A stretch of DNA of 64,000 bases from an uncultured Gemmatimonadota bacterium (GTDB lineage Bacteria > JAAXHH01): contig OX638340.1 in NCBI GenBank assembly GCA_951812955.1, positions 3,072,001-3,136,000 on the forward strand. The letters are read 5' to 3'. A model generated the notes under the pieces. It was not told where the DNA came from. It ran no database searches and saw only the letters and a list, made by a program, of their open reading frames with translations. Below, one piece after another: positions 3,181 through 56,072 of this stretch (the stretch's first letter is position 1; the number at the start of each line of letters is the position of its first letter). Position numbers and translations under genes: made by a program.

Positions 3181-3843
3181 TTATCCGCCGCAGCAGGTCT
3201 GCATCACTTTTTCCACCCGATCGCGCACTTCCGCCTGCACTTCTTCGGGCGCGCGCGCGCCATCAATAATCTCAATCTGATCCAATGTTTTTCTGCGGTG
3301 CGCCAGTTCCAGGTAATTTCCGCGGATGGCGCGAAGCGTTTCCAGGTTCTCGAACAACTCGGTATCCGCACGCGCCTGGCGTATCCGTTCCATGCAAACC
3401 TCGGCGGGCGCATCGATGAGCAGGGTCAGATGGGGGTGGATCGCCCGTGCGTTGATCGACTCGATCCAGTCCAGCTCGCCGGGCATCTCCCGCCACTGGT
3501 AGGCAAAGGACGAGAGGAAATAACGGTCGCACAACACGGGGATTCCGCGGTGAATGCTGGATTCGATTTCCGATTTGACGTGATCGATCCGGTCGGCGGC
3601 GAACAGCAGGGCGTGACAGATGCCGTCGAGTTCCACCCGGCGCTGAAGGGCATCTTTCAGCAGTCTGCCGATGGGGCGGTTCGTGGGTTCTCCCGTGGTA
3701 AGGACGGGCCTCCCGTAACGCACTTCCATCCACTCGTGAAGGCGTTTCAGCTGAGTCGTCTTGCCCGCGCCGTCTATCCCTTCGATTACGATGAATGGCG
3801 CGGCGGCGTCGCCGGAATCGCGGCAGACCTCCTTTCCCTTCAT
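3181..3843 (-). CDS. tmk: Thymidylate kinase
   Basis: P-loop FIVIEGIDGAGKTTQ, DRY-like motif LCDRY; start ATG 3843 overlaps upstream stop (ATGA). Confidence 0.85.
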   Translation of the reverse strand: MKGKEVCRDSGDAAAPFIVIEGIDGAGKTTQLKRLHEWMEVRYGRPVLTTGEPTNRPIGRLLKDALQRRVELDGICHALLFAADRIDHVKSEIESSIHRGIPVLCDRYFLSSFAYQWREMPGELDWIESINARAIHPHLTLLIDAPAEVCMERIRQARADTELFENLETLRAIRGNYLELAHRRKTLDQIEIIDGARAPEEVQAEVRDRVEKVMQTCCGG

Positions 3844-4520
3844 GAATTCCCCCATGGACGGAGCAGGTCCCGCCATCCACGCGCTTCTTCCAGGACGCTG
3901 GTTTCGCTAAGCTCATATCGTTTCAGGGTTTCACGCAGTCCGGTGCTGAACAGCACGCCGATGGCACCGATGCCCAGGAAGAGCAGCCCGATACCGCTGG
4001 CCAGGCTGAAGACCATGATGAGAGAACCGGCCAGCAACAGCACGAAGGCGTAGCCGGCGTTGTCCAGGGCGAGGAATACACCGGAACGGATGATCTGCCT
4101 GACCGGGGCCCGGTTCCGGTACGCAAGCGGCAATGTGAAGACGGCCGTCATGCAGACGAAGACGATCAGCCACATCATCACGCCGCCCAGGACCGCGCCG
4201 GTCCAGGGCCAGTCATCCATGAGACGCATGTAGAAAAACACGTTGGCGGCAAGGAGAGCCAGGACGCCCGCGTAAAGCCCGCAGAGCACGAAACTGCGGC
4301 CCAGATCCTGCCTGGCGTGAACGAAGAAATCCCTCAAGCCCGTCTCTTCGTAGGCGGCGATTCGTCCGGTGACCCGGAACAGTCCGGCAAAGGCGAGGGG
4401 AAGCGTAACCAGCGGCAGGGCGCACAATATCCACAGGATGTTGATCACGATCAGCGTTCCCAGGTAATCATAGGTATTCCAGAACCATTTCCTGAACAGC
4501 CCGGGATCCTTGTCCTGCAT
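3840..4520 (-). CDS. DUF624/YesL-like integral membrane protein
   Basis: 226 aa, several long hydrophobic segments; N-terminal FRKWFWNTYDYLGTLIVINILW resembles YesL family. Confidence 0.55.
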   Translation of the reverse strand: MQDKDPGLFRKWFWNTYDYLGTLIVINILWILCALPLVTLPLAFAGLFRVTGRIAAYEETGLRDFFVHARQDLGRSFVLCGLYAGVLALLAANVFFYMRLMDDWPWTGAVLGGVMMWLIVFVCMTAVFTLPLAYRNRAPVRQIIRSGVFLALDNAGYAFVLLLAGSLIMVFSLASGIGLLFLGIGAIGVLFSTGLRETLKRYELSETSVLEEARGWRDLLRPWGNS

Positions 4521-4559
4521 ACTCGGCGCACCCTTTTACGGGGCTTTCGGCCGGCGGCC

Positions 4560-4636
4560 GCGGTTCGCAAAGCCCGAATTCAAAGGCCGGCCCGGCCGGG
4601 TGCTGCGGTTCGCGAAGCCTGTTTCCAAAGGCCGGC
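4560..4636. repeat. Two 32-bp imperfect direct repeats (gcggttcgcaaagcccgaattcaaaggccggc / gcggttcgcgaagcctgtttccaaaggccggc), period 45 bp, in divergent promoter region
   Basis: seen directly in sequence, 4560-4591 and 4605-4636. Confidence 0.6.
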
Positions 4637-4711
4637 TCGGTCTGCTCGACAACGCCAGCATGGTACAGGCTCCACCCTGAATTCGCAACTGTTTTCTTGG
4701 CGAGAAAAACC

Positions 4712-4740
4712 TTGACATAACCGTCGGACCGCAATATAAT
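4712..4740 (+). promoter_or_regulatory. Consensus sigma70-type promoter: TTGACA(4712-4717)-17 bp-TATAAT(4735-4740)
   Basis: perfect -35 and -10 hexamers with 17-bp spacer, about 55 nt upstream of leader ORF start. Confidence 0.55.
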
Positions 4741-4796
4741 GGCGCAATTCTAACAGTGGGCAGTCGAACGTGTTCCTCATCAAACTCTGGAAAGAA

Positions 4797-4916
4797 ATGA
4801 CAGCCGTTTACTCCTCCCGGTCATCGCGATTCGATTATTGGCGGAAGCAGAGCGATCTGTTTACCTGGTGGCCTTTTTACGGGACGAGGCGGCATGTCAT
4901 GCGAAGCGGCGCCTGA
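4797..4916 (+). CDS. Aromatic-codon-rich attenuation leader peptide (trpL-like), 39 aa: MTAVYSSRSSRFDYWRKQSDLFTWWPFYGTRRHVMRSGA
   Basis: manual translation; tandem TGG TGG at 4866-4871; 9 of 39 codons are Phe/Tyr/Trp; sits between consensus promoter and intrinsic terminator ahead of trpE. Confidence 0.55.
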   Translation: MTAVYSSRSSRFDYWRKQSDLFTWWPFYGTRRHVMRSGA

Positions 4917-4948
4917 TTGAAGTAGATTCATCCTTCGTTGATTTGACC

Positions 4949-4990
4949 GGCCTCTACCCACACAAGGTAGCGGCCTTTTTTTGTTTTGTG
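4949..4990 (+). terminator. Intrinsic terminator / attenuator hairpin: GGCCTCTACC-cacacaa-GGTAGCGGCC followed by TTTTTTTGTTTTGTG
   Basis: 10-bp GC-rich stem (1 mismatch) plus T-tract, 33 nt after leader stop and 76 nt before trpE ATG. Confidence 0.6.
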
Positions 4991-5065
4991 CGGGCATGAT
5001 CGCGACAGGCCGCTCCAGGTAGAGGGAATCCCAGGCAACTTGTCACCACGTAAAGGTCTGTAACC

Positions 5066-6553
5066 ATGTACAGGACATCCTACGACACCTTTCTGGAGTA
5101 CAACGGCAAGCCCGATTTCCCCCTGGTGCCCATCTGGCACGAACGGGACCTGACAGATGAAACGCCCGAGGAAACCTTCCACCGGATCAGCGCGGGATAC
5201 CGGTACGCCTTCCTGTTGGAGAGTATGGAAGGCGATCAGAAAACGGCGCGGTATTCCTTCGTAGGCGCAGATCCCTTTGAGCGTATCGTCGGAACGAAAC
5301 AGGGGATCAACAGGATCAACGACCGGGGGGTGCTGACGCTGAAGGGCAACCCCATCGAGCTGATGCGGGAAATCATGAGGGAATACCGGACCCCGGTGCT
5401 CGAACACCTGCCCCGGTTCACGGGCGGCGCCGTGGGATACCTCGGTTACGACGTCGTTCGGCACTTCGAAGAAATTCCGGACGACAACCCGGACGACCTG
5501 ATGATGCCCGACCTGCACTTCATCGTGGCAGGGAAGATTGTGGTTTTCGACCACGCGCGCAAGCGCATGTACGTGATCGTCAATATGCTGTCCAATGCCA
5601 CGGATCCCGCATCGGCCTACCGGCAGGGCATGACCCAGGTAGACGACATGCTGAAACGGATCGACCGGCCACAGCCTCCAGTCGAGTCCTTCGATGAAGG
5701 CCCGACCATGGAGGCGGATCGGACCGTGTCCTCCAACATGACCCGGGACGAGTTCGAGGATACGGTGAGGACGGCCAAGGAATACATCGCCGCGGGGGAC
5801 ATCTACCAGGTGGTGCTGTCCCAGCGGTTCAGGATGGAAGCCGGCCGGGATCCCTTCGATGTGTACCGGGCGCTCGCGAGGCTGAATCCATCGCCCTACC
5901 TGTTTTACCTGCGGCTGGACGACGTGCATATTGTCGGCTCCTCGCCCGAGACGATGGTACTGGCCGAGAACCGCAGGGTGACGGTACGCCCTCTGGCCGG
6001 GACTTGCCGGCGGGGCGCGGACGAGGCGGAAGACCGGCTGTTGATCGAAGAGATGCTGAATGATCCCAAGGAACGGGCGGAACATGTGATGCTGGTGGAC
6101 CTGGGCCGAAACGATATCGGCCGCATCTGCGAATACGGTACGGTTCGAACGTCGGAACTGATGGGCATAGAGCGGTATTCCCACGTGAGCCATATCGTAT
6201 CGAACGTGGAGGGACGCCTCCGGGAAGGCATCGATGGATTCGACGTGCTGGAGGCGACATTCCCGGCGGGGACCCTGTCCGGCGCACCCAAAATCCGGGC
6301 CATGGAAATCATCGACGAACAGGAGACCACCCGGCGCGGCGTGTACGGCGGGGCATTGGGGTATTTCGGTTTTTCGGACAACCTCGACCTGTGCATCACC
6401 ATTCGGACCATGGTTATCAAGGACGGCCAGGCCTACATCCAGGCGGGCGCCGGCATCGTCGCGGACTCGGATCCCGGAAAAGAATACGAGGAATGCTGGA
6501 AGAAGGCCGAGGCGCTGCTGCGGGCGCTGAAGGAAGCCGAGGTGGTTTCATGA
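5066..6553 (+). CDS. trpE: Anthranilate synthase component I
   Basis: 495 aa; TrpE/chorismate-binding family (LLESMEGD, C-terminal [22 protein letters not shown]). Confidence 0.9.
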
Positions 6554-7131
6554 TCCTGGTCATCGACAACTACGATTCTTTCACGTACAACCTCGTTCAG
6601 TACCTCGGGGAACTGGGTCAGCAGGTCACCGTGCGCCGTAACGACCGGATTACCCTTCCGGAGATCGAGGCCCTCGACCCGGACCACCTGGTCCTCTCTC
6701 CCGGGCCTTGCACCCCTGATGAAGCGGGCGTTTCCGTCGACGCGGTCCGTCGTTTCTCAGGCCGGCTGCCCATCCTGGGCGTATGCCTGGGACACCAGTC
6801 CATTGCCCAGGCCTACGGAGGACGGATCGTTCGCGCGTCGAAGCCCGTTCACGGCAAGACCTCCTCGATTGCCCACGATGGCGAATCCATCTTCAACCGG
6901 TTGCCGAATCCCTTCACCGCGACGCGTTACCACTCGCTGATCGTGGAAAAGGAAACACTGCCCGGATGCCTGGAAGTGACCGCGCGATCGGAGGACGGCC
7001 TGATCATGGGGTTGAGGCATGGTTCCCTGCCCGTTTACGGTGTACAGTTTCACCCGGAGTCCATACTGACCGAAGTAGGCAGACAGCTGTTGCGGAATTT
7101 CGTGGAGTCGAAGGCGTATGAACCAGCCTGA
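6550..7131 (+). CDS. trpG: Anthranilate synthase component II (glutamine amidotransferase)
   Basis: [23 protein letters not shown], catalytic GVCLGHQ; ATGA overlap with trpE stop. Confidence 0.9.
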
Positions 7132-7308
7132 TGTCATCCTGACCGGCATCAAGCCGACGGTCGGTCCGCTCATCGGCAACTATGCGGGCGCCGGCAGCAG
7201 GCGGGAGTCGGCAGGTACGGACATGGAGATCGCAAGGCAGGCGGTGGGAAGATAGCGGTGGAGATTTTGGTGTAAACGACTTATGCACCTCGATGGAGAC
7301 AGGCACCC

Positions 7309-8319
7309 ATGATACAGCAGGCGATAGCGAAGGCGATTGAAGGAATCTCGCTTTCCGAGGCGGAAGCCGTGGAGGTCATGAACGGGATCATGTCGGGCGA
7401 CGCGACGCCGGCGCAGATCGGCGCCTTCCTGATCGCCTTTCGACAGAAGGGCGAGACGATCGAAGAGGTCACCGGGTTTGCCCGGGTCATGCGGGCCAGG
7501 GCCACGCGGATAGACTGCCGCGCATACCCTATCGTGGATACCTGCGGCACGGGCGGCGACGGCAAGCATACGTTCAACATATCGACGGCGGCGGCCTTCG
7601 TGGCCGCGGCCGCGGGTGCCTTTATCGCCAAGCACGGGGGGCGCGCGGCATCCAGCAAGGCGGGCAGCGCCGACGTACTGACGGCCCTGGGCGTGAATAT
7701 CGAGACGCCGCCGGAGAAGGTGTCGGCATGCATCGACGAAATCGGCATCGGCTTCATGTTCGCCCCGGCCCTCCATTCCGCCATGCGATTCGCCAGCGGC
7801 CCGCGGCGGGAACTCGGCGTGCGGACGGTGCTCAACCTGCTGGGACCGTTGACCAATCCGGCCGGAACCACGGCCCAGGTCATGGGCGTATACGATGGAA
7901 GCGTCGTCCAGACCGCGGCCCACGTGCTGAACAACCTGGGGGCGGAACGTGCTTTCGTGGTGCACAGCGAAGACGGGTTGGACGAGATCGCGACCACGGC
8001 GCCGACCCACGTGGCGGAAGCCAGGGACGGCACCGTAAGGAGCTACGATATCGCGCCGGAAGACTTCGGTCTGCCACGGGCTTCCATCGAAGACCTCAAA
8101 GGTGGCGAAGCGGACGAGAACGCCGGGATCATCCGGTCCCTGCTTGAAGGGGAAACCGGCCCGAGAAGGGACATCGTCCTGCTGAACGCCGCGGCGGCGA
8201 TCGTCGCCGGAGGAAAGGCGGAGGATTTCAACGAGGGCATCACCCTGGCGGCCCGAGCGATCGATACCGGCGCGGCTAGGGAGAAACTGGACGCGTTGAT
8301 CAGGATGACGAACGCGTAA
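7309..8319 (+). CDS. trpD: Anthranilate phosphoribosyltransferase
   Basis: 336 aa; CGTGGDGKHTFNISTAAAFV motif. Confidence 0.9.
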   Translation: MIQQAIAKAIEGISLSEAEAVEVMNGIMSGDATPAQIGAFLIAFRQKGETIEEVTGFARVMRARATRIDCRAYPIVDTCGTGGDGKHTFNISTAAAFVAAAAGAFIAKHGGRAASSKAGSADVLTALGVNIETPPEKVSACIDEIGIGFMFAPALHSAMRFASGPRRELGVRTVLNLLGPLTNPAGTTAQVMGVYDGSVVQTAAHVLNNLGAERAFVVHSEDGLDEIATTAPTHVAEARDGTVRSYDIAPEDFGLPRASIEDLKGGEADENAGIIRSLLEGETGPRRDIVLLNAAAAIVAGGKAEDFNEGITLAARAIDTGAAREKLDALIRMTNA

Positions 8320-8360
8320 GTGCCTGGTACCGGCGGAGGCGGGAGTACGACGGGGAAAAC

Positions 8361-9170
8361 ATGGCAGCCATGAATATCCTGGACCAGATAGTAGCGCACA
8401 AATTCGACGAAATAGAAGACCGGAAGCGCCGTAGGCCGTTGCCTCGCGCTGAGCCCGGACGCCGGTCCGACGTGCGGCCGTTTGACCTTGCGCTGAAACA
8501 GGGGCACGGCATCTGCGTCATCGCCGAATTCAAGAAGGCTTCGCCGTCGAAGGGCGCGATACGTCCGGATGCCGTGCCCTCGGAGATCGGGCCGGTCTAC
8601 GCGGCTCACGGCGCCTCGGCCATTTCGGTGCTGACGGACCGGCGGTTCTTCCAGGGATGTGACGAGGACCTGGCGGCGCTTCGCGGGAGTGTGCCGGTAC
8701 CCGTGCTGCGAAAGGAATTCATCGTAGACGAATACCAGGTCCACGAGACGGCGGCCATGGGCGCGGACGCCATGCTGCTGATCGCGGCGGTACTGGACGA
8801 TGGCCGTCTGGCGGCACTGCGGCAGGCCGCGGCGGTATACGGCCTGCACTGCCTGGTGGAAGTACACGACGACGAGGAGTTGGACCGGGCCATGGAAGCC
8901 GGCAGCCGAATCATCGGCATCAACAACCGGGATCTGACGGATTTCACCGTTTCGCTGGATACTTCACTGAGACTGAGGCGGCGCATTCCCGATGGGATCG
9001 TGACCGTCAGCGAGAGCGGGATCCATACGCGTGAGGACGTCCTTATCCTGGAGCAGGCTGGATTCGACGCCGTACTCGTGGGCGAGTCCCTGATGGCGGC
9101 GGACGGGATCGGCGAACAACTGGACGCCCTGCTGGGCCGGGCACCCGTGCGAACAGGCGGCGGGGCCTGA
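8361..9170 (+). CDS. trpC: Indole-3-glycerol phosphate synthase
   Basis: 269 aa; IAEFKKASPSKG, INNRDL motifs. Confidence 0.85.
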   Translation: MAAMNILDQIVAHKFDEIEDRKRRRPLPRAEPGRRSDVRPFDLALKQGHGICVIAEFKKASPSKGAIRPDAVPSEIGPVYAAHGASAISVLTDRRFFQGCDEDLAALRGSVPVPVLRKEFIVDEYQVHETAAMGADAMLLIAAVLDDGRLAALRQAAAVYGLHCLVEVHDDEELDRAMEAGSRIIGINNRDLTDFTVSLDTSLRLRRRIPDGIVTVSESGIHTREDVLILEQAGFDAVLVGESLMAADGIGEQLDALLGRAPVRTGGGA

Positions 9171-9193
9171 AAGATCTCCCCGCGGACAGGATT

Positions 9194-9805
9194 ATGAACA
9201 CGGTCAAGATCAAGATTTGCGGCATCACGAATGAAGCGGACGCCTCCGCGGCGGTCCACGCGGGCGCGGACGCGCTGGGTTTCATTTTTTACGGTGGCAG
9301 CCCCCGGTACGTCGAGCCGGAGCAGGTCGCGGACATCGTGGGCGGCCTGCCGCCTTTCGTCGTGCCGGTAGGCGTTTTCGTGAACGCGTCGGTGGACGAA
9401 GTCGACGAAGTCTGCGAGAACACGGGGATCCAGGTCGCACAGCTCCATGGCGATGAATCGCCGGATTTTTGCACCAACGTGGGCCGGCCCGTCGTCAAGG
9501 CCCTTCGCGTCAGGGACGCGTCCTGGAAATCCGATGCCGCGGCCTATGCCGTCGGCGCGGTGCTGCTCGATACGTACGCCGAAGACCGGTATGGCGGTAC
9601 AGGGGTTGTGTTCGACTGGCGGCTCGTGGAAGGCAGCCCCCACCGCGTCATTCTGAGCGGCGGGCTGAACCCGATGAACGTGGCCGAGGCCGTGCGGAGC
9701 GTGCGTCCCTACGGTGTGGACACGGGGAGCGGTGTGGAGCGGGAGCCGGGCCGCAAGGATCACGGAAAGATCCGGGCCTTCGTGGAGGCCGCGAGGGGGG
9801 CGTAA
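9194..9805 (+). CDS. trpF: Phosphoribosylanthranilate isomerase
   Basis: 203 aa; KICGIT, QLHGDE motifs. Confidence 0.85.
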   Translation: MNTVKIKICGITNEADASAAVHAGADALGFIFYGGSPRYVEPEQVADIVGGLPPFVVPVGVFVNASVDEVDEVCENTGIQVAQLHGDESPDFCTNVGRPVVKALRVRDASWKSDAAAYAVGAVLLDTYAEDRYGGTGVVFDWRLVEGSPHRVILSGGLNPMNVAEAVRSVRPYGVDTGSGVEREPGRKDHGKIRAFVEAARGA

Positions 9806-10698
9806 TGAACACGCTGGACGAGGACGGGTCCCGGGGACTTTCTATTTCCGGTTCGACCCGCGTGGTCGGCGTATGCGGCCGGGGCATCGGTTACACCCTT
9901 TCGCCGGCCATGCACAACGCCGCCTTTCGGCATTGCGGACTGGACTACGTGTATGTAACCTTCGAAATCGCGGCGGCCGCCGTTCGACAGGCGGTAGACG
10001 GGATCCGGGGACTCGGGCTGGCGGGCGTAAACGTGACCAAGCCGCTCAAGACGGACGTACTGCCCTACCTGGACGAGGTGTCCGACGAGGCCCGAAGGAT
10101 CGGGTCGGTCAATACCATCGTCAACCGCTCGGGCCGGCTCGCCGGCGCTTCGACGGACGGCGCCGGACTACTGCGGGCACTCAGCGGAAAGGGTGTCACC
10201 GTCGAGGATTCGAGGGTGGTTATCCTGGGTGCCGGCGGTGCGGCCCGGGCGGCCTGCCATATGGCCAGGAGCGCGGGGGCGGGCTCGATTGCCATAGCCG
10301 CACGCGACGCGGCGCGCGCCGAAGACACCGCGGCGGTGGGAGGCGCATCGGCGGTTTCCCTGGCGCCGCGGGAACTGGGCGCCGCGATCGGGAGCGCCGA
10401 TCTGGTCATCAACGCGATCCCCGCGGACCTGCCCCTGGATGAAGACTGGTTCAATGCGGGACAATTTGTCTACGAAACGCGTTACGACCAGGAGGAGACA
10501 GGACTTATGCGTAACGCCCGGTCCCGGGGCGCGGGCGCGTTGAACGGCATCGATATGCTGCTGTTTCAAGGTGCTGAGTCGTTTGAGATCTGGACCGGAC
10601 GGCAGGCTCCGGTCGAAGTGATGAGAAGCGCCCTGGAAGATCAGTTGCGGCGCCGGGTAGACCAGGATGGGGCTGGTCATCCGGGACGTCCGACATAG
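9805..10698 (+). CDS. aroE: Shikimate dehydrogenase
   Basis: ATG at 9805 overlaps trpF TAA (TAATG); MNTLDE...GVCGRGIGYTLSPAMHNAAF, NVTKP, LGAGGAARAA. Confidence 0.85.
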   Translation: MNTLDEDGSRGLSISGSTRVVGVCGRGIGYTLSPAMHNAAFRHCGLDYVYVTFEIAAAAVRQAVDGIRGLGLAGVNVTKPLKTDVLPYLDEVSDEARRIGSVNTIVNRSGRLAGASTDGAGLLRALSGKGVTVEDSRVVILGAGGAARAACHMARSAGAGSIAIAARDAARAEDTAAVGGASAVSLAPRELGAAIGSADLVINAIPADLPLDEDWFNAGQFVYETRYDQEETGLMRNARSRGAGALNGIDMLLFQGAESFEIWTGRQAPVEVMRSALEDQLRRRVDQDGAGHPGRPT

Positions 10699-10801
10699 TG
10701 ATGGCGCTGAGGCCGGCGGCGCGGTTACATCGTCCGGCGGCGTACATATGCTTGACGGTCCGGGGCAGACCGGGCCGGGACCCTAGAAATCTGGAGACCG
10801 C

Positions 10802-11959
10802 ATGTTACGATACCTGACCGCAGGAGAATCTCACGGACCGGCGATATCGGCGATCCTCGAAGGGCTGCCCGCGGGGGTACCGGTCGCGGCGGAAGAGGTC
10901 AACCGCGACCTGAAACGGCGCCAGGGAGGATACGGACGAGGCCGGAGAATGCAGATCGAGACCGATACGATCGAAATCCGGGGCGGCGTCCGCCATGGAA
11001 AGACTATGGGCGGCCCGGTTTCCCTTGTGGTCCAGAACCAGGACTGGAAGAACTGGACGGACGTGATGTCGATCGAGGAGGCCGACGGTCCGGTGAGGCG
11101 CCGGGTGACGCGGCCCCGGCCGGGGCATGCCGACCTGGCGGGTGGCCTGAAGTACGACCGCCGCGACCTCCGGGACATCCTCGAGCGGGCCAGCGCCCGG
11201 GAAACGACCATGCGGGTTGCCGTCGGCGCAATCGCCCGCTCCCTGCTGGCGGAGTTCGGCATCCATGTACTCAGTCACGTCGTGCGGATCGGGCAGGTGG
11301 ACGCGGACGTGAGCGGACTGTCGAACGAACAGATCCTGGAACGGGCCGAGGCGTCGCCCGTGCGCTGCGCCGACGCGGACGCCGCGCAGAAGATGATCGG
11401 AGAAATCGACCGGGCAAAGTCCCTCAAGGACACGATCGGCGGAGTCTTCGAGGTCAAGGTGCTGAACGCGCCCCCCGGACTGGGCAGTCATGTGCAGTGG
11501 GACCGCAAGCTCGACGGACGACTCGCCCAGGCGGTCATGAGCATCCAGGCCGTGAAGGGGGTCGAGATCGGACTGGGCTTTGGCGTGTCCCGGGTGCTGG
11601 GTTCCGAGGTCCACGACGAGATCCACTATGGCGACGGCCGTTTTTACCGGGAAACGAACCGGGCCGGCGGCATCGAGGGCGGCATGACCGAAGGCGAGGA
11701 AATCGTGGTGCGCGGCGCCCTTAAGCCCATCGCGACCCTGATGCGCACCATCATGTCGGTGGATATCGAGACCAAGGAAGCCTTCGATTCCGCCAAGGAG
11801 CGTTCGGACGTCTGCACCGTACCCGCCGCCGGCGTGATCGGCGAAGCGGTGGTGGCCTTCGTCGTCGCCGACGCCATGCAGGAGAAATTCGGCGGCGACA
11901 GCCTGGAGGAGATGAAGCGGAACTACCAGGGCTACAAGGACCAGTTGGCCCGTTACTAG
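10802..11959 (+). CDS. aroC: Chorismate synthase
   Basis: 385 aa; MLRYLTAGESHGP, GRSSARETTMRVAVGA-like motifs. Confidence 0.9.
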   Translation: MLRYLTAGESHGPAISAILEGLPAGVPVAAEEVNRDLKRRQGGYGRGRRMQIETDTIEIRGGVRHGKTMGGPVSLVVQNQDWKNWTDVMSIEEADGPVRRRVTRPRPGHADLAGGLKYDRRDLRDILERASARETTMRVAVGAIARSLLAEFGIHVLSHVVRIGQVDADVSGLSNEQILERAEASPVRCADADAAQKMIGEIDRAKSLKDTIGGVFEVKVLNAPPGLGSHVQWDRKLDGRLAQAVMSIQAVKGVEIGLGFGVSRVLGSEVHDEIHYGDGRFYRETNRAGGIEGGMTEGEEIVVRGALKPIATLMRTIMSVDIETKEAFDSAKERSDVCTVPAAGVIGEAVVAFVVADAMQEKFGGDSLEEMKRNYQGYKDQLARY

Positions 11960-11963
11960 CGGA

Positions 11964-13643
11964 TTGTCCGGAGCATTTACCGGCAGCGCGCGGCCTCGGA
12001 TATCACCGGTCGAGGCGATCACGACAGGCAGGCGGCACGTGGCGAAAACTGGACAGGAGAAAGCCGGCGGCATCGTCCTGATCGGTTTCATGGGCACCGG
12101 AAAGACGGCGGTGGGGCGGCGGCTCGCAGGCGCCCTCGGCCTGCCCTTCGTGGACACCGACACGCTGATAGAGGAGCAGGCCGCGACCAGTATTCCGGAT
12201 CTCTTCAGGACGCGGGGCGAGACGGGTTTCCGGGCAATCGAGAAGCAGGTCATTCGCAGCCTTGCCGACGGGGAGCGCCGGGTGATCGCCACCGGAGGCG
12301 GCGCCGTGCTCGATCCGGACAACTTCGACGTGCTCAGGTCCCTCGGTCCGGTTATTCACCTGAGCGCGCCGGCGCCGACTATCCTGGCGCGAACGAAAGG
12401 CGACGCCGGCGTGCGGCCCCTGCTGGCCGGGGACGACCCGCTGGAGCGGATCCGGTCGCTTCAACGGGTGCGTGCGCCGGTCTACGGCCGAGCGGACCAC
12501 GAAGTCGACACGTCACGGCATACCATAGACGAGACCGTGGAGATGGTCATGGCATGGACCGGAAACGGCGAGCGCGTGATCCGGGTAGAACTCGGGGACG
12601 ACAGCTACGATATCGTGATCGGATCCGGCTGTCTCGGACGCCTGGGCTCCTTGATGAGTTCCTTCGACCTGACCGATCGCGCACTGGTCGTAACCCACCC
12701 GGATATCGCCACGCTCTACGGGGAACGGGCTGCGGACTCCCTGCGTTCGGCCGGCTTCGAACCGGCCGTGATCGAGGTGCCGGCCGGAGAAGAACAGAAA
12801 TCGCTGCAATGGGCCGAGAAGCTATACGACGCGATGCTGTCCCATCGCATGGACCGCCGTTCCCCCGTCATCGCGCTGGGCGGCGGGGTGGCCGGGGACC
12901 TGGCCGGCTTCGCCGCGGCCACCTTCCTGCGCGGCATTCCATTCATACAGGCTCCTACTTCTCTCCTCGCCCAGGTGGACGCCAGCGTGGGGGGCAAGGT
13001 CGCCGTGGACCACCGTCGTGGGAAGAACCTGATCGGCGCCTTCTACCAGCCTCTGCTCGTACTGGCCAGCCTGGACACGCTAGACAGTCTGCCCGATCGG
13101 GAACTGCGCGCGGGCATGGCGGAAGTGATCAAGTATGGGGTCATTGCAGACGCCGGCCTTTTCACCTATATTGAGGGTCGCCTTGACGAGATACTCAGGC
13201 GCGAATACGGTGCGCTCGCCCATCTGGTGGCCCGGTCCTGCGAGATCAAGGCCGATGTCGTTGCCGGGGACGAGCGTGAGCAGGGTCGGCGGGCCATACT
13301 CAACTTCGGCCACACCATGGGGCATGCCATCGAGACGCAGACCGGCATGCTGCACGGAGAGGCCGTGGCGATCGGCATGGTCTACGCGGCCCGTGTCGCG
13401 AAACGCCTGGGCATGCTGGACGGCGACAGCGTGCAAAGGCTGATCGAGTTGGTGCGTCGAACGGGGTTGCCGGTGCGCTGCGACGGCCTTGACGCTTCGG
13501 CGACCCTCGAAACCATGAAGTTGGACAAGAAATCGGTCGGTGGCCGCATGCGTTTCATCCTGCCGGAGCGAATTGGCGCGGTGGTCATCCGGGACGACGT
13601 CCCCAATGATTATATCCGGTCGGTCTTGACCGCGGGAACCTGA
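11964..13643 (+). CDS. aroKB: Bifunctional shikimate kinase / 3-dehydroquinate synthase (AroK-AroB fusion); true start may be internal near 12060
   Basis: 559 aa single ORF: N-terminal shikimate kinase Walker [22 protein letters not shown]-terminal DHQ synthase ([33 protein letters not shown]). Confidence 0.85.
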
Positions 13644-13676
13644 GTAGCGGCGCTACCAGGCAAAACGGAACGAAAC

Positions 13677-14123
13677 ATGAAATTACTCGTGTTGCACGGT
13701 CCGAATCTGAATATGCTGGGTGTCCGGGAACCGGAGGTCTACGGCAGAGATACGCTGGAAGACATCAACCGGTCCCTCGAGTCGGCCGCGGCGGACCAGG
13801 GAGTCGAGTTGCGCATTCGCCAGTCCAATCACGAAGGGGTGCTAGTGGACGAGATTCAGGAGGCCCTCGGGCGGGCGGAAGGCATCCTGATCAATCCCGG
13901 CGCGTACACGCATACGAGCATCGCCCTGCGCGACGCGATCGTCGCCGTGGGCCTGCCCGTCGTGGAGGTGCACCTGTCCGACATTCACGCCCGGGAGCAT
14001 TTCCGGCGCCATTCCTATATCGAGCCTGTGGCGCTCACGCAGATCTGCGGACATGGAAGCAGAAGTTACCTGCTGGGCCTGGAGGCCCTGGTCGATCATA
14101 TCAGGACGGGGAGCGAGGGATGA
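13677..14123 (+). CDS. aroQ: 3-dehydroquinate dehydratase, type II
   Basis: 148 aa; [33 protein letters not shown]. Confidence 0.9.
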
Positions 14124-15340
14124 CTGCCACCGCACTGCCTGACAAAAGAGGACACTTCGGGGTCTTCGGCGGCCGTTACGTCCCGGAAACGCTGATGACG
14201 GCCCTGGACGAACTCCTCGAGGTATATGAAGCGGCGACGCGGGATCCCGTCTTCGAGGATGAATTCCGCTACTTCCTGGCGGACTACGTGGGCCGGCCTT
14301 CCCCCCTTTACTTCGCGGAACGACTGACGGAGACCCTCGGCGGCGCCCGGATCTACCTCAAGCGGGAAGACCTGAACCACACGGGCGCCCACAAGATCAA
14401 TAACACCATCGGCCAGATCCTGCTGACCCGGCGCATGAATAAACCCCGGGTCATCGCCGAGACCGGAGCCGGCCAGCACGGCGTGGCCACGGCGACCGTG
14501 GCCGCCCGTTTCGGCCTGGAGTGCGACGTCTACATGGGGACCGAGGACATGGAACGCCAGGCGCTTAACGTCTTCCGCATGCGCCTGATGGGGAGCCGGG
14601 TCATCGGCGTCGACGCGGGCAGCCGCACGCTGAAGGACGCGCTGAACGAAGCCCTGCGCGACTGGGCGACCAACGTGCGGCATACCCATTACATCATCGG
14701 ATCGGTGGCGGGGCCCCATCCCTTCCCCTTGATGGTACGGGAATTCCAGTCGGTCATCGGCCGCGAAGCGCGCGGGCAGATCCTGGAGAAGGAAGGGCGG
14801 CTGCCGGATATGCTTGTCGCCTGCGTGGGGGGAGGCAGCAACGCCATCGGCCTCTTTCATCCTTTTCTAGACGACGAAGTGCAACTGGTCGGCGTGGAAG
14901 GGGCGGGGCACGGGCTCGACACCGGCCTGCACGCCGCGACGCTGGGCCAGGGCACGCCGGGCGTACTGCACGGCGCCATGAGCTATACGGGACAGGACGC
15001 AAATGGCCAGATCCAGGTCGCCCATTCCATCTCCGCCGGGCTGGACTATCCCGGTGTGGGACCCGAGCACAGCTACCTGAAGGACTCCGGCCGCGCGGAT
15101 TACGTCAGTGTGACCGATGACGAGGCGCTGGAGGCCTTCGAGCTGCTGTCCAGGGTCGAAGGCATCATACCCGCCCTGGAAAGCGCCCACGCCATCGGCC
15201 ATATCGCCCGGATCGCCCCGGGAATGGACCGGGATCAGATCATTGTCGCCGGGCTGTCGGGCCGCGGGGACAAGGATGTCGAGCAGGTATACGGATTCAT
15301 GGACCAGGAGCGGGTGGACCAGGAGCGGATGGAGGGCTGA
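14120..15340 (+). CDS. trpB: Tryptophan synthase beta chain
   Basis: 406 aa; [26 protein letters not shown] motifs. Confidence 0.9.
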
Positions 15341-16162
15341 ATGAACCGCATTGAAGAGACCTTCGCGACGCTTAAGTCTGCGGAACGGAAAGCGCTCGTC
15401 CCGTACATCATGGCGGGAGATCCGGACCTGGAAACGACCGCCGACCTGGTCGTGGAACTGGATCGCCGCGGCGCCGACCTGGTCGAACTGGGCGTTCCCT
15501 TCTCCGATCCCATCGCGGACGGCCCGACGATACAGCGCGCCGCGCTGCGGGCCCTGGATCAGGGCACGACCCTCCGGAACATCGTCGGTACGGTCGGATC
15601 CATCCGGGAGCGGTCGGACATACCAATCGTCCTGATGACCTATTACAACCCGGTACTCGCCTACGGTATCGAGGATCTTTGCCGAGATGCCGTCCGCACA
15701 GGTGTGGACGGTCTGATCGTACCCGACCTCCCGCCGGAAGAGGGCGGCGACCTGTCCGATGCCTGCCGGCGACATGGACTCACCGTCGTGTTCCTGGTGG
15801 CGCCCACGAGCACAAAGGCCCGGATCGAACTGGTGGGCCGCCACACCACGGGATTCGTATACTGCGTCTCCCTGACCGGCGTCACGGGCGCCCGGGGAAA
15901 GCTGGCGGACGGGGTGGACGAGTTTATGGCGCTGGTGCGGTCCCACACGGACCGGCCCCTTGGCCTGGGATTCGGCATTTCGTCGCCGGAACAGGCCAAT
16001 GAGGCCGCCCGGCTGGCCGACGGGGTCATCGTGGGCAGTGCCATAATCAACGTAATGGAAGAACACGCCGGCGAGCCGGATTTGATCCGGACCGTGGGCG
16101 AATACGTGGCTTCACTGAGAGCGGGCATAGACAGGAAGAACCCGGTGACCGCGCCGGGGTGA
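15341..16162 (+). CDS. trpA: Tryptophan synthase alpha chain
   Basis: 273 aa; LVPYIMAGDPDLETT, ELGVPFSDPIADGP, GFGIS. Confidence 0.9.
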   Translation: MNRIEETFATLKSAERKALVPYIMAGDPDLETTADLVVELDRRGADLVELGVPFSDPIADGPTIQRAALRALDQGTTLRNIVGTVGSIRERSDIPIVLMTYYNPVLAYGIEDLCRDAVRTGVDGLIVPDLPPEEGGDLSDACRRHGLTVVFLVAPTSTKARIELVGRHTTGFVYCVSLTGVTGARGKLADGVDEFMALVRSHTDRPLGLGFGISSPEQANEAARLADGVIVGSAIINVMEEHAGEPDLIRTVGEYVASLRAGIDRKNPVTAPG

Positions 16163-16375
16163 TTTCGGGTAACGGGTTCGATGCCGGGGTAGCTTCTGGT
16201 GCCGGGTACGATGCCGTTTGCACAGGAATTGAACATGACAGCAGTTTCATCCAGCCAGGGAGATGCATGTGGGAGTCGAGGAGCCCGGTCGGGTCTCTGC
16301 GGCTCCCACGTATTCCAACCAACTTTTCAGGTATGTTTCTGATAGAATCCAGCATTCCGCATTCCAGGAGGAACC

Positions 16376-16741
16376 ATGGTCCGGGGCGTTCGAGGCGCCA
16401 TAACCGTTGAACTGAACACCGCCGATGCCATTGGAGAAGCGTCCCGGCGACTGCTGTCGGCGATCGTCGACGCCAATCGCATCGAATTGGAGCAGATCGC
16501 CAGCGTCATCTTTTCCGCGACGAAGGATCTCGACGCCGAGACGCCCGCATTGGGAGCGCGCCAGATGGGATGGACGTCGATCCCCCTGTTCTGCACCCAG
16601 GAGATGGAAGTCCCAGACGGACTTGCCCGGTGCATCCGGGTTCTGATTCACGTAAACACGGTAAAACCACAGGATGAAATACGGCATGTTTACCTGAACG
16701 GAGCCGTAGTACTCAGGCCGGACATCGCCGAAGGAGGTTGA
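16376..16741 (+). CDS. aroH: Chorismate mutase, AroH class (monofunctional)
   Basis: 121 aa; [12 protein letters not shown]...CIRVLIHV...[15 protein letters not shown] matches AroH-type CM; AGGAGG RBS 6 nt upstream. Confidence 0.8.
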
Positions 16742-16742
16742 A

Positions 16743-17759
16743 ATGGTGGTCGTAATGAAGCCGCAGGCTTCGGAAGACCAGAAGGAGCATGTAAGGGATA
16801 CCATCCGTGCTTTCGGCTGCAAACCGCGTGACATTCAGGGTGACGCAATTACAATTATCTGTCTTATCGGCAATACACTGAGCCTTTCGCCCGAACAGTT
16901 TGAAATCCTTGACGGGGTGGACCGGGTTCAGCGCATTCAGCGGCCATACAAGCTCGTAAGCCGGGAAGTGCAGCCGCACAAGACCCAATTTCAGGTAGGC
17001 AACGTCACGATCGGCGGCGATGGGATTACCATCATAGCCGGTCCCTGTTCGGTCGAATCCTATGACCAGTTCGTGGAAGCGGCGCGGCACGCCCGGGCGG
17101 CCGGGGCCCACATCATCCGCGGCGGCGCGTTCAAGCCGCGGACTTCCCCCTACAGTTTCCAGGGGCTCGGCGAGGAAGGCCTGAAGATCATGGCCCGGGT
17201 CAGCGAGGAAACGGGACTGCCGACCATCTCGGAGGTGATGGAGCCGGAAATGGAACCGATGGTCTCCGAGTACGTGGACATGCTGCAGGTCGGCGCGCGC
17301 AATATGCAGAACTACCCGCTGTTGAACGCCGTGGGACAGAGTTCCAGGCCCGTCATGCTCAAGCGCGGCATGTCCGCCACGATCGAGGAGATGCTGCTGG
17401 CGGCAGAATACATCCTTGCGGGGGGAAACCACAACGTCGTTCTGTGCGAGCGGGGTATACGGACCTTCGAGACCTGGACGCGGAATACACTCGACATCTC
17501 GGCCGTGCCGGTGTTACAGAAATACACCCATCTGCCGGTCTTCATCGATCCGAGCCACGGAACCGGCAACGCGGATTTCGTGGGTCCGGCGTCCCGGGCG
17601 GCCGTTGCGGTCGGCGCGGACGGACTCATGATCGAGATGCATCCCAGACCCGAGCGCGCACTTTCGGACGGGGACCAGTCTCTGACTCCGGAAGCGTTTG
17701 CCTCGCTGATTCCGGAATTGCAGGCGGTCGCGACAGCCGTGAACCGCACCATAGACTGA
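16743..17759 (+). CDS. aroF: 3-deoxy-7-phosphoheptulonate (DAHP) synthase, type I-beta with N-terminal ferredoxin-like regulatory domain
   Basis: 338 aa; N-terminal about 80 aa ([43 protein letters not shown]) resembles the FL regulatory domain of Thermotoga-type DAHPS; core [23 protein letters not shown]. Confidence 0.8.
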
Positions 17760-17767
17760 GTTCGTTT

Positions 17768-18631
17768 ATGCGAGTCACCATCATCGGAGTCGGATTGCTG
17801 GGCGGTTCCTTCGGCATGGCGCTCCGCAAGTCGGGGGCGGCGGATCATGTCGCGGGCGTCGACCTGGACCGGGCAACGCTCGACCGGGCCATCGATCGCG
17901 GCGCGGTCGACGAGGGATTCCTCGACCTGGCCGAGGGGGTGGAAAGGGCCGACCTGGTCGTGCTCGCCACGCCGGTCCGGGCCATACTCGAGATGCTGCC
18001 GGGCCTGGCGTCGATTCTCGGTGCGGAGACCGTCCTCCTGGACCTGGGCAGCACCAAGGAGGCCATCGTTTCCACCGTCGCCAGTCAGGCCGGAATCAAA
18101 CGGTATGTCGGCGGACACCCCATGGCGGGAACCGAGCACGCCGGCATCGAACACGCCGATGCCCGGTTGCTGCAAGACGCGACTTTCGCCCTGGTCCCGC
18201 CTCCCGAGGTCGATGAAGGGGCTGTCGATCTGCTCACGGATCTCGTCCGCGGGATCGGCGCCTGTCCCGTCGTCATTCCCGCGGAACGCCACGACCGGAT
18301 CGTTTCCATAACCAGCCACCTCCCCTACCTGCTGTCCGTAGTGTTGGCGCTCGCCGCGGAAAACATGGCGCGCGAGGAAGACCGCCTGGGAGCGTTTGCG
18401 GCATCGGGATTTCGGGACACCACCCGTCTGGCCGCGTCCAACGTGCGCGTGATGGCCGACATTTGTCTGACGAACGGCCGGCCACTGCTCCGCGGCATCG
18501 AGGACGCCAGGCGGTTGCTGGACGACCTGGCGGCGCTGATCGAGGAGGGACGCGAGTCGGAACTGGTGAGGACGCTGACGACAGCGAAGGAAAGCAGGGC
18601 CTCGTTGTTGGAGGAGAGGAGAACCGATTGA
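17768..18631 (+). CDS. tyrA: Prephenate dehydrogenase
   Basis: ATG 17768; MRVTIIGVGLLGGSFGMALRKSG Rossmann N-terminus, HPMAGTE motif. Confidence 0.85.
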   Translation: MRVTIIGVGLLGGSFGMALRKSGAADHVAGVDLDRATLDRAIDRGAVDEGFLDLAEGVERADLVVLATPVRAILEMLPGLASILGAETVLLDLGSTKEAIVSTVASQAGIKRYVGGHPMAGTEHAGIEHADARLLQDATFALVPPPEVDEGAVDLLTDLVRGIGACPVVIPAERHDRIVSITSHLPYLLSVVLALAAENMAREEDRLGAFAASGFRDTTRLAASNVRVMADICLTNGRPLLRGIEDARRLLDDLAALIEEGRESELVRTLTTAKESRASLLEERRTD

Positions 18632-19470
18632 ACAAGTACAGGACCGGCTTCCAGGGCGAACTGGGCGCTTTCAGCGAAATGGCCGTGCAGGCATATTTCG
18701 GGGACGCGGCCGAACCGGTGCCACACGGGTGGTTCGACGACGTGTTCCGCGCCGTGGACGAAGGGCGGTGCGACTACGGGATGCTTCCGATCGAAAACAC
18801 CCTCGCGGGCAGCATCCACGTCAATTACGACCTGATGCAGGAGCACGACCAGCAAATCGTCGGCGAGATCGTGCTCCGGATCGTCCACAACCTGATGGCG
18901 AAACCGGGTGTCCGCCCGGAGGAACTCCGCCGGGTCCAGTCTCATCCCAAGGCGCTGGAACAGTGCGTCCGGTTTTTCCGGGAACATCCGTCGCTGAAGC
19001 CCGAAACTGTTTACGACACGGGCGGCGCGGCCAAGATGCTAGGTGAGGGAGAAGACCGGGACATCGGCGTGATCGCGAGTACCCGCGCCGCGGAGCGGTA
19101 CGGACTCGAGATCCTGGAGCACGGCATCGAAGACAACGTCCAGAACTATACGCGTTTCCTGGTCCTGGGCAGGGAGCCCGAACCACCTGTGGGCGAACGC
19201 CTTAAGACCTCCATCGTGTTCTCGATGCCCCACGAACCCGGCACGTTGTTCAAGGCCATGAGCGTATTCGCGCTGCGGGACATCTCCATCAACAAGATCG
19301 AATCGCGGCCCCTGGTCGGATCCCCCTGGGAGTACCTGTTCTACCTGGATTTCGAGGGACACGCCGACAGTCTGCTCTGCAAACGTGCGCTCAACCACCT
19401 CCAGGAGATCGCGACCAACTTCAAGCTGCTGGGATCCTACGCCGAGGGCAGCATCGTGGACCGGGTCTGA
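18628..19470 (+). CDS. pheA: Prephenate dehydratase (PDT + ACT domain)
   Basis: TTG 18628 (RBS GGAGGAGAGGA upstream) overlapping tyrA stop; NYTRFLVLG (TRF motif), ESRPLVGSPWEYLFYLD (ESRP motif). Confidence 0.85.
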   Translation: MNKYRTGFQGELGAFSEMAVQAYFGDAAEPVPHGWFDDVFRAVDEGRCDYGMLPIENTLAGSIHVNYDLMQEHDQQIVGEIVLRIVHNLMAKPGVRPEELRRVQSHPKALEQCVRFFREHPSLKPETVYDTGGAAKMLGEGEDRDIGVIASTRAAERYGLEILEHGIEDNVQNYTRFLVLGREPEPPVGERLKTSIVFSMPHEPGTLFKAMSVFALRDISINKIESRPLVGSPWEYLFYLDFEGHADSLLCKRALNHLQEIATNFKLLGSYAEGSIVDRV

Positions 19471-19480
19471 AGGGAACGGA

Positions 19481-54605: not shown

Positions 54606-56072
54606 TTATAAGCCGGACCTTACAATACGCGCCACGTCGTGAATCCGGCTTTTCTCTACGCCCCGCATGTCGATCCGGACCCGGTCCCGGCCGCAATCGA
54701 CCAGCAGAGGAGGGGTCCCATTAAGCCACCGGTCCGCCAGGTCTTCGCCCCTGGACCCCGGCGCGCGAACCGAGACAGCGAAGCTGGGCATGGCGTGGAT
54801 GGGAAGGCGGTACGTGGTGAGATGCGACCGCTGTTCGACCACGGTACACTCCGCGCGGAATCGACAGTCTTCAGTCAGGCGTTCGAGCAACTGGCGGGCA
54901 CGGGCGCCTACCTCGTCCGGGGATGCGGCCAGCATGTGGGCCGCCGGGTGGTTCTCGAGGTCGCAGTCGCTCCCGGCCAGTTCCGCCAGACGCGCGTCGA
55001 GCCCCGCTCTCACGTGCCTGGAGGCCCGCGCCGCGGGCCACATGCCGTGCCCTCTAATGCGCGCCAGGATCCGGCGCTTTCCGATCAGCAGTCCGCAGGG
55101 GGGACCGCCAATCAGGCCTCCGCCGGCCGCGATGATCAACGGCGTGCCGTGCCGCACCGCTTCCGCGACGGAGCCCGCGGCCGGAAGCGCGGCGGAAGTG
55201 ACCGGGCGCAACGTCGTGTCGCCGGCCAGGTGAAGCACCTCGACGCCGGTGTCCGTACCGGTCCGTACGATCTCTTCCTGCGCGGGTTCTTCTGTGAAAC
55301 CTCGAAGGGCGCAGGTGGACGGGCGCGCCGTGACGATCAGCGCGGTGCGGTCACCTACGGCGCCAAGGTAGTCGGACACGCGGGTCTTGTTGGCGGCGCC
55401 GGCCTCTACCACGGCTGCGCCGGCCTGTCCACAGATCGACACCGGACTCAAAGGCCGCGCATCGTAAGGCGCATCGATCAGTCCAAGCTGGCTGCGGCCG
55501 AAGACGACTTCCGCACCTTCGGCGAGGGCCCGGATCGCCAGGAAGAAAGCGGCGCCGACCGAACGGCATACCAGTGCGTCCTCGGCGCCGGTCAATTCGC
55601 CAAGCAGGCCGGAGGCGCGGCCGTCATCGTCGTAAGCCGCGACCGTGAGCGACAGCCGCGAAGCCCTATCCGCGGCCTTCCCGGCAAACCGGTCCCGCGC
55701 CCGTGGATGGAAGAGGATGCCGGAGGCGTTGATCAGGTCCCCGGCCGTCGACCTGTCTTCCCGCTCCAGGAGCGCGGCGACTCGTCCCGCGAAGTGCTCC
55801 GACTCGAAACCGGCCGTCGACCTTTCTTCCCGCTCCAGGAGCGTGGCGACTCGTCCCGCGAAGTGCTCCGGCTCGAAACCGCCTGCTTCAGTCTCGGGAG
55901 GACGGAACCGGATCCGGTCCCGCGCGTCGCGCAGTACTTTCCGGATCGCGTTGTCGATCTGCCGGTCCTCGAACCGGCCGCGCAATGCCCCGACGCGGGG
56001 ATCGCGTTGCATCGCGCCCACGGAAGGCAGGAGGGCGAGCCAGGGCCTTAAGTCTTCGCGGCCTGGTCTCAT
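54606..56072 (-). CDS. SelA-family (L-seryl-tRNA(Sec) selenium transferase-like) fold-type-I PLP protein LACKING the PLP lysine; contains 23-aa in-frame tandem duplication
   Basis: ATG 56072; LTGAEDALV, EVVFGRSQLGLIDAPYD...AGAANKTRVSDY, IVTARPSTCALRGFT align with SelA core; where SelA has SFSGDKLLGGPQAGIIVGK this has IIAAGGGLIGGPPCGLLIGK (Lys to Gly, DNA 55116-55118 = gcc on plus strand); the 624-aa track ORF has a spurious 136-aa N-extension. Confidence 0.65.
   Translation of the reverse strand: MRPGREDLRPWLALLPSVGAMQRDPRVGALRGRFEDRQIDNAIRKVLRDARDRIRFRPPETEAGGFEPEHFAGRVATLLEREERSTAGFESEHFAGRVAALLEREDRSTAGDLINASGILFHPRARDRFAGKAADRASRLSLTVAAYDDDGRASGLLGELTGAEDALVCRSVGAAFFLAIRALAEGAEVVFGRSQLGLIDAPYDARPLSPVSICGQAGAAVVEAGAANKTRVSDYLGAVGDRTALIVTARPSTCALRGFTEEPAQEEIVRTGTDTGVEVLHLAGDTTLRPVTSAALPAAGSVAEAVRHGTPLIIAAGGGLIGGPPCGLLIGKRRILARIRGHGMWPAARASRHVRAGLDARLAELAGSDCDLENHPAAHMLAASPDEVGARARQLLERLTEDCRFRAECTVVEQRSHLTTYRLPIHAMPSFAVSVRAPGSRGEDLADRWLNGTPPLLVDCGRDRVRIDMRGVEKSRIHDVARIVRSGL

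Follow-up and report, generated by a model that had tools for sequence, protein, structure and literature searches.

How a single leader might balance the three branches of aromatic amino acid synthesis is the question raised by the region preceding trpE in a 64,000-nucleotide (nt) stretch of DNA from an uncultured Gemmatimonadota bacterium (contig OX638340.1 of assembly GCA_951812955.1, positions 3,072,001 to 3,136,000 of the forward strand). This whole stretch is called here the window, and positions are counted from its first letter. An earlier note, made from the letters alone, had described a perfect TTGACA-17-TATAAT promoter, a 39-codon open reading frame (ORF) with tandem TGG TGG codons and nine aromatic codons, and a GC-rich hairpin with a T-tract before trpE, and had proposed an attenuator of the trpL type. 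All of these elements were read where the note had placed them. The proposed architecture also held, since the alternative 1:2, 2:3 and 3:4 folds between four RNA segments are predicted and the elements are conserved in relatives. Folding and comparison of sequences point to a four-segment transcription attenuator of the classic kind, worked by the ribosome through a leader peptide, a reading to which we give a probability of about 0.8. That the arrangement is above chance is confirmed by the uniqueness of the promoter, the aromatic excess of the ORF and its presence in 21 related loci. Its elements are the following:

4712 to 4740, plus strand: sigma-70-type promoter, TTGACA at 4712-4717, 17-nt spacer, TATAAT at 4735-4740, a 12/12 match to the consensus.
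4789 to 4794, plus strand: weak Shine-Dalgarno-like GGAAAG, with GGA 6-8 nt upstream of the leader ATG.
4797 to 4916, plus strand: leader peptide ORF, 39 codons plus stop, ATG at 4797 and TGA at 4914-4916, product MTAVYSSRSSRFDYWRKQSDLFTWWPFYGTRRHVMRSGA.
4797 to 4818, plus strand: segment 1, 5' strand of the predicted anti-antiterminator, AUGACAGCCGU..CUC.CUCCC; includes the start codon and would pair with 4881-4900 when the leader is untranslated.
4843 to 4865, plus strand: hairpin P1, GGAAGCAGA / UCUGUUU.CC, between segments 1 and 2, with U-rich sequence after it; both the window fold and the consensus fold predict it.
4881 to 4892, plus strand: segment 2, 5' strand of the predicted antiterminator, GGG-AC-GAGGC-GG.
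4893 to 4946, plus strand: central hairpin, predicted in both conformations; juxtaposes segments 2 and 3 and contains the leader stop codon.
4947 to 4959, plus strand: segment 3, CCGGCCUCUACCC, which would pair with segment 2 in the antiterminator and with segment 4 in the terminator.
4949 to 4987, plus strand: intrinsic terminator, stem GGCC-U-CUACC (4949-4958) / GGUAG-C-GGCC (4966-4975), loop 4959-4965, U7 at 4976-4982, then G and UUUU at 4984-4987.

The promoter is the sole 12/12 match within 15.6 kb (4400-20000), transcription probably starts near 4747, and the trpE ATG is at 5066. In the mechanism that we propose, a ribosome would translate the 39-codon leader while RNA polymerase is still on it. 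When Phe-, Tyr- and Trp-tRNAs are all fully charged, this ribosome would pass segment 2 and enter the central hairpin, toward the stop codon at 4914; segment 3 would then pair with segment 4, the terminator (4949-4975 and the U-tract) would form, and transcription would end with an RNA of ~236 nt. If one or more of these charged tRNAs ran short, the ribosome would stall at F12, Y14, W15, F22, W24 or W25, that is, upstream of about codon 25, and would cover segment 1 or hold it from segment 2. The freed GGG..GAGGCGG and CCGGCCUC..CCC would then form a helix that extends the base of the central hairpin, so that the 5' arm of the terminator would be sequestered and polymerase would read through into the trp, aro, tyr and phe genes. 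In an untranslated leader, segment 1, the 5' end of the ORF with its AUG, would instead pair with segment 2 and the terminator would form, a state corresponding to super-attenuation. The co-transcriptional timing and the response to each amino acid belong to the model, as does a possible role of P1 as an RNA polymerase pause hairpin.

The earlier note had left the antiterminator unassigned and had suggested folding the RNA in search of mutually exclusive structures. In the window fold an antiterminator is indeed predicted between 4881-4892 and 4947-4959, stacked on the central hairpin, and an anti-antiterminator from the 5' end of the ORF. The antiterminator pairs GG (4891-4892) with CC (4947-4948), GAGGC (4886-4890) with GCCUC (4950-4954) and GGG (4881-4883) with CCC (4957-4959). 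Predicted duplex energies are -28.5 kcal/mol for 1:2, -17.0 for 2:3 and -17.2 for 3:4, and the terminator itself, which has a conserved internal U.C mismatch, has a free energy of -13.9 kcal/mol. For the untranslated leader, the minimum free energy is -74.5 kcal/mol (1:2 together with 3:4) versus -65.5 kcal/mol with the antiterminator forced; with segment 1 masked, the antiterminator is favoured (-33.0 versus -29.4 kcal/mol for the terminator). We also folded the RNA downstream of a masked ribosome for each codon in the A-site and calculated equilibrium probabilities. With no ribosome on the leader, the terminator forms with P=0.995. With the A-site at codons 8-24 this falls to 0.006-0.15, except for 0.40 at one codon, and the antiterminator forms; it is 0.53 at W25 and 0.87-0.995 from P26 onward. 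The aromatic codons effective in this simulation are F12, Y14, W15, F22 and W24 and, marginally, W25.

To what extent this organization is shared was examined in 21 related loci whose TrpE proteins are 59-98% identical to that of the window, all from uncultured Latescibacterota-like metagenome-assembled genomes (MAGs). A scan of one genome per species gave ten loci with TrpE 87-98% identical, the next match being only 49% identical; these ten close loci come from uncultured MAGs labelled Gemmatimonadetes, Latescibacterota or 'bacterium'. A protein search gave intermediate TrpE relatives (59-84% identity), some labelled Latescibacteria or Zixibacteria, whose contigs were compared. The relatives have in common a divergent DUF624/MusI membrane gene, a long intergenic region and the order trpEGDCF-aroE-aroC. 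Upstream of trpE, 21/21 loci have a TTGAC..TATA[A/T]T promoter, a small aromatic-rich ORF, a terminator GGCCUCUACC..GGUAG[C/U/A]GGCC and a U-tract, as well as an upstream GAGGC that pairs with the 5' arm of the terminator; the hairpin and U-tract, whose conservation the earlier note had made a test of its proposal, are therefore present in every relative. In the alignment of the close clade the -35 TTGAC and the -10 TATA[A/T]T are invariant, and both are recognisable in the distant relatives. The GGA upstream of the leader ATG is also invariant in that alignment, with variable flanks; in the distant relatives, purine-rich elements precede the start codons by roughly 7-18 nt. A structure-anchored DNA pattern scan of metagenome contigs gave three matches and no added diversity: one nearly duplicates the relative L002, another is the L081 contig already among the loci, and the third is fortuitous, in coding sequence with no U-tract. 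Within the window, a second exact GGCCTCTACC at 55401 is likewise a chance occurrence, lying inside a long ORF without hairpin or U-tract.

The window leader has nine aromatic codons out of 39 (Y5, F12, Y14, W15, F22, W24, W25, F27 and Y28), with the tandem TGG TGG at 4866-4871. This aromatic content of 23% compares with 5.6% in the operon's own proteins (binomial P=2.6e-4), in which Trp accounts for 0.32%, and the other two frames are lower. The leader peptides of the relatives diverge considerably yet stay aromatic-rich (for example MPRVPAIFSPYGFRFWWRQAYLFAWWPFYGVK, MSFMLPVFFSYSFRPFWQAFRFVWRPFYPAIARRDTTRS and MNSTASHFPPYPFDRFQAWFWQAFPFSRWFFYGFMVRREVTRGTECG); they have 32-48 codons, 18-38% aromatic residues and 2-4 Trp each, and the own reading frame has the highest aromatic count in 22/22 leaders. 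We then defined, in 11 lineage representatives, a stall-effective zone consisting of the codons at which a stalled ribosome leaves the antiterminator arm uncovered. Phe codons are 6.5-fold enriched in this zone (56 observed, 8.7 expected, P=2e-28), Tyr codons 3.1-fold (22 observed, 7.2 expected, P=5e-6) and Trp codons 31-fold (30 observed, 0.96 expected), the P-values being optimistic because the lineages are related. All three types of codon occur in the zone in 11/11 lineages, at shifting positions, and the last Trp codon always lies 17-26 nt upstream of segment 2. The direction of the enrichment is unambiguous for Trp and Phe and moderate for Tyr.

Conservation of the RNA follows the predicted pairings. 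GAGGC is found in 17/17 distinct family sequences and is altered in three of them. In L089 and L091 the alteration leaves a wobble pair (G.U after A to G, U.G after C to U), and in L087 a terminal pair is lost. The element persists whether it is read as AGG-CGG, as GAG-GCG or in overlap with a UGA stop, three frame contexts in all, which indicates a constraint on the RNA rather than on the peptide, and GCCUCU in segment 3 is invariant across the family. When a nascent RNA ending before the 3' arm of the terminator is folded, GAGGC pairs with GCCUC and closes the central hairpin in 13/13 representatives. The central hairpin is itself found in 13/13, with lineage-specific inner helix sequences and an apex pair changed from U-A to C-G in three sequences; the helices that flank GAGGC/GCCUC and cover the rest of the terminator arm are also lineage-specific (GGG/CCC, CGGGGUA/UACCCCG, YGGU/ACCG). 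In a 17-sequence alignment the antiterminator core is 91.9% paired in register versus 28-61% when the partner is slid, and 100% of the terminator cells are paired, with one compensatory change from G-C to A-U. For the anti-antiterminator, the RNAalifold consensus built on the close clade contains a single compensation, C-G to U-A, and has changes in L009 that are compatible with wobble pairing. In 10/13 lineages GAGGC has a predicted partner early in the ORF, which in some of them consists of the Phe, Pro or Ser codons themselves. Moreover, almost every lineage has an internal U.C or U.U mismatch in the terminator stem, which is perfect only in L085. The mismatched U of the terminator pairs perfectly with the A of GAGGC, which makes the antiterminator locally the better match.

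The unit that the leader would regulate is the following:

5066 to 19470, plus strand: predicted operon of 15 genes, in order trpE, trpG, trpD, trpC, trpF, aroE, aroC, an aroK/aroB fusion, aroQ, trpB, trpA, aroH (chorismate mutase), DAHP synthase, tyrA and pheA.

The gene identities, assigned with NCBIfam, agree with the earlier inference that Trp, Phe, Tyr and common shikimate genes are combined in one operon; however, aroA and an aromatic aminotransferase are not in it (5066-19470), so that it is not quite the whole aromatic pathway. Outside the operon, a scan of ten ORFs of the window (nine of 422-466 amino acids and one of 398), which was not exhaustive, gave no aroA. The 3' limit at 19470 faces a convergent gene. 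No convincing plus-strand terminator and no strong promoter were found in the operon interior, and a single transcript probably covers the 15 genes, including gaps of 177 nt (7132-7308), 103 nt (10699-10801) and 213 nt (16163-16375), the last between trpA and aroH.

Several observations weigh against the attenuator as we describe it, or against parts of it. The covariation score is matched by 67/500 shuffles for the antiterminator and 86/500 for the terminator. Formal covariation is weak because the key helices are nearly invariant, and the case for them rests on conserved, register-specific complementarity and a few compensatory changes. The small ORF and the enrichment in Phe, Tyr and Trp codons are kept down to 59% TrpE identity, and of the refuting conditions named in the earlier note, every one that computation could address was checked and none applied. 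In the masking folds, the equilibrium switch is seen in the window's clade, L081 and L086; in L083, L085, L087, L088, L090 and L091 the terminator dominates at every ribosome position. These six, about half of the distant relatives, have stronger terminators, and the case there is kinetic, via the fold of the nascent transcript. F27 and Y28 are too near segment 2 for read-through in the simulation. If pairing across the stalled ribosome is allowed, segment 1 can still capture segment 2 at W24 and W25 stalls, so that read-through there would need trailing ribosomes covering segment 1. The Shine-Dalgarno-like sequence of the leader is weak. Off-frame aromatic counts are not negligible in U-rich relatives, and the pyrimidine-rich segment 1 may account for some of the Phe enrichment. 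Finally, Tyr sensing is the least certain of the three; the closest precedent, the aroR leader of Corynebacterium glutamicum, has a Tyr codon without a Tyr response (PMC11802643).

Some of these points would also fit an attenuator that senses Trp only, in which the Phe and Tyr codons are by-products of the pyrimidine-rich segment 1 and the UUUUUACGGG stretch, or belong to a hitch-hiking peptide. Trp enrichment is by far the strongest and the Trp codons are the best placed relative to segment 2; the ineffective F27 and Y28, the off-frame codons and the aroR precedent fit it too, and L091 keeps the RNA UUUUUUACGGG while a frame change turns Y into T, which indicates an RNA-level constraint at that spot. 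Such a Trp-only device nevertheless seems unlikely to us, since Phe and Tyr codons are enriched in the effective zone and occur there in every lineage at shifting positions, the own frame tops the aromatic count in every leader, and pyrimidine richness does not explain Tyr codons (UAU/UAC). Moreover, shared shikimate genes lie inside the trp cluster, which makes Phe and Tyr sensing physiologically sensible. Sensing of all three amino acids by this one leader is, in our estimate, slightly better than an even bet. The earlier suggestion of a single Phe/Tyr/Trp attenuator for the whole pathway thus stands as regards the enrichment of the three codon types, but the genes covered fall just short of the whole pathway and Tyr sensing is a part that we infer.

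The 131-nt leader core is 94-98% identical whereas the third codon positions of trpE are 66-75% identical, which is more than simple attenuators usually need. This could indicate that the terminated ~236-nt RNA, the 39-amino acid peptide or both act mainly in trans, like rnTrpL and peTrpL of Sinorhizobium, possibly in addition to attenuation; attenuator-derived small RNAs and functional leader peptides are documented (PMC6614838, PMC7298713). However, conservation in the deeper lineages extends neither to the C-terminal tail of the peptide nor to the inside of the central hairpin, the overlapping constraints of coding and of three alternative helices can explain the conservation, and no target is at hand, although no search was aimed at one, so that a mainly trans-acting role is improbable in our view. 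Similarly, we would give little credence to the fullest version, in which three-way attenuation over nearly the entire aromatic pathway is combined with a second function of the RNA or peptide in trans, even though such a function would explain why the leader core is more conserved than trpE. Control by a protein or ligand (TRAP-like, T-box, riboswitch, or a TnaC-like arrest peptide sensing free Trp), with the ORF irrelevant or acting through nascent-peptide arrest, is the least probable alternative and a very improbable one. An arrest motif might in principle be seen in the invariant W[W/R]PFYG and a binding site in the large central hairpin, but L091 keeps the RNA of that motif with a frame change, the interior of the hairpin is not conserved between lineages, which argues against an aptamer, and the terminator is intrinsic, not Rho-dependent as in tna. 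In addition, an Rfam cmscan of 3500-6000 gave no leader, T-box or riboswitch family even at E<=10, and no T-box core motif was found. (G/U)AG triplets at a spacing of 2-3 nt form no chain longer than 1 (shuffle mean 1.5), far from the 9-11 triplets that TRAP leaders need. Ribosome-mediated attenuation through the leader peptide remains the reading that we prefer.

How this attenuator would relate to known systems can be considered element by element. The trpL leader of E. coli has 14 codons. The window leader has 39 and adds Phe and Tyr codons; moreover, it has a 54-nt central hairpin between segments 2 and 3, its segment 1 includes the start codon, and it precedes 15 genes including shikimate, Phe and Tyr enzymes in an uncultured Latescibacterota-like lineage. 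It has no sequence or covariance-model similarity to the Trp_leader family of Rfam (RF00513) and is not a member of it, though it would be trp-leader-like in its working. Common to the E. coli and Salmonella trpL are the promoter, a short ORF with tandem Trp codons, mutually exclusive 1:2, 2:3 and 3:4 hairpins, an intrinsic terminator just before trpE and, as predicted here, termination by default when the leader is untranslated (PMC1183508). The model of I:II, II:III and III:IV pairing with super-attenuation has been described for trp and his (PMC1183508). The pheL leader of E. coli shares with the window a Phe-codon-rich peptide that attenuates a gene of the Phe branch, pheA, but it is short and has runs of Phe codons only (PMC3082878), whereas the window has pheA as the last of 15 genes and Phe codons mixed in with those for Tyr and Trp.

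Leaders with codons for several end products are exemplified by thrL (Thr and Ile), ilvL of ilvGMEDA (Ile, Leu and Val) and ilvBN. As we propose for the window, one such leader serves a branched pathway and any shortage relieves termination; the pathway is other than aromatic. The thr, ilvGMEDA and ilvBN operons are listed as attenuated (PMC1183508). Closest in codon content is the aroR leader upstream of aroF in C. glutamicum, which contains Phe-Tyr-Phe and responds to Phe and not to Tyr (Neshat et al. 2014, summarised in PMC11802643). It has in common with the window mixed aromatic codons, ribosome stalling and control of a shikimate-pathway gene, but it lacks Trp codons and the C. glutamicum trp operon has a separate trpL, whereas the window's single leader carries all three types of codon before trp, shikimate, Phe and Tyr genes. 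The aromatic supraoperon of Bacillus subtilis has the order aroFBH-trpEDCFBA-hisC-tyrA-aroE. There too, trp genes lie within a larger shikimate/Tyr/Phe cluster and a terminator/antiterminator switch precedes trpE. However, in B. subtilis this switch is set by TRAP binding to 11 (G/U)AG repeats (PMC3064811), whereas the window lacks such repeats and has a translatable aromatic-rich ORF.

Our literature searches turned up multivalent leaders of other pathways and the Phe/Tyr leader aroR, but no tri-aromatic (Phe, Tyr and Trp) multivalent leader and no report of attenuation in the Latescibacteria lineage. We also know of no multivalent leader covering the three aromatic amino acids. What is distinctive at this locus is the combination of a 39-codon tri-aromatic leader, segments 2 and 3 set apart by a large scaffold hairpin, a start codon located within segment 1, a 15-gene operon and an uncultured clade. 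Should the leader work as proposed, it would add an uncultured Latescibacterota-like lineage of the FCB group to those with classic leader-peptide attenuation, and would provide a compact case, open to testing, in which a single RNA switch balances three branches of a pathway, as well as a possible natural part for aromatic amino-acid biosensors. The understanding of attenuation itself would be unchanged, since multivalent leaders have precedents in thr and ilv, and a Phe/Tyr leader in aroR.

A further element lies between the terminator and trpE:

5009 to 5025, plus strand: GGCCGCUCCAGGUAGAGG, complementary to both terminator arms, duplex energy -15.0 kcal/mol.

The earlier note had pointed out that GGTAGAGG (5018-5025), within this element, can pair with the terminator arm CCUCUACC. 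The complementarity is real, but GGTAGAGG is transcribed after the U-tract and therefore cannot be the antiterminator, and it was rejected as such. The element is conserved in 9/10 close-clade sequences without compensatory change, and it could refold the read-through mRNA. In the consensus fold of the close clade, GACC (4945-4948) then pairs with GGUC in the ribosome-binding region of trpE, which hints at a possible second, translational layer of control.

Other observations concern the operon and the region upstream of the leader. The aroK/aroB fusion joins shikimate kinase and 3-dehydroquinate synthase in a single ORF of 559 amino acids (11964-13643). In the gap between trpA and aroH, a 35-codon ORF (16235-16342, MTAVSSSQGDACGSRGARSGLCGSHVFQPTFQVCF) is accompanied by a 7-bp hairpin, GUGGGAG/CUCCCAC. 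The start of this ORF resembles the leader start MTAVYSS, but the DNA similarity is within the range of shuffles (22 versus a maximum of 27) and a duplicated leader was rejected. Between the start of the DUF624/MusI gene (4520, minus strand) and the leader promoter, positions 4548-4637 contain a GC-rich 45-nt repeat, present twice in tandem at 80% identity and with an internal palindrome, and a similar stretch occurs in L092. Finally, at ~4650-4700, GCATGGTACA..(about 20 nt)..CGCAACTGTTTTCTT is shared by every relative, even at 59-65% TrpE identity. Its minus-strand reading resembles a -35/-10 pair, TTGCGA-17-TACCAT (TATACT in relatives), and the DUF624-thymidylate kinase genes probably have their divergent promoter here.

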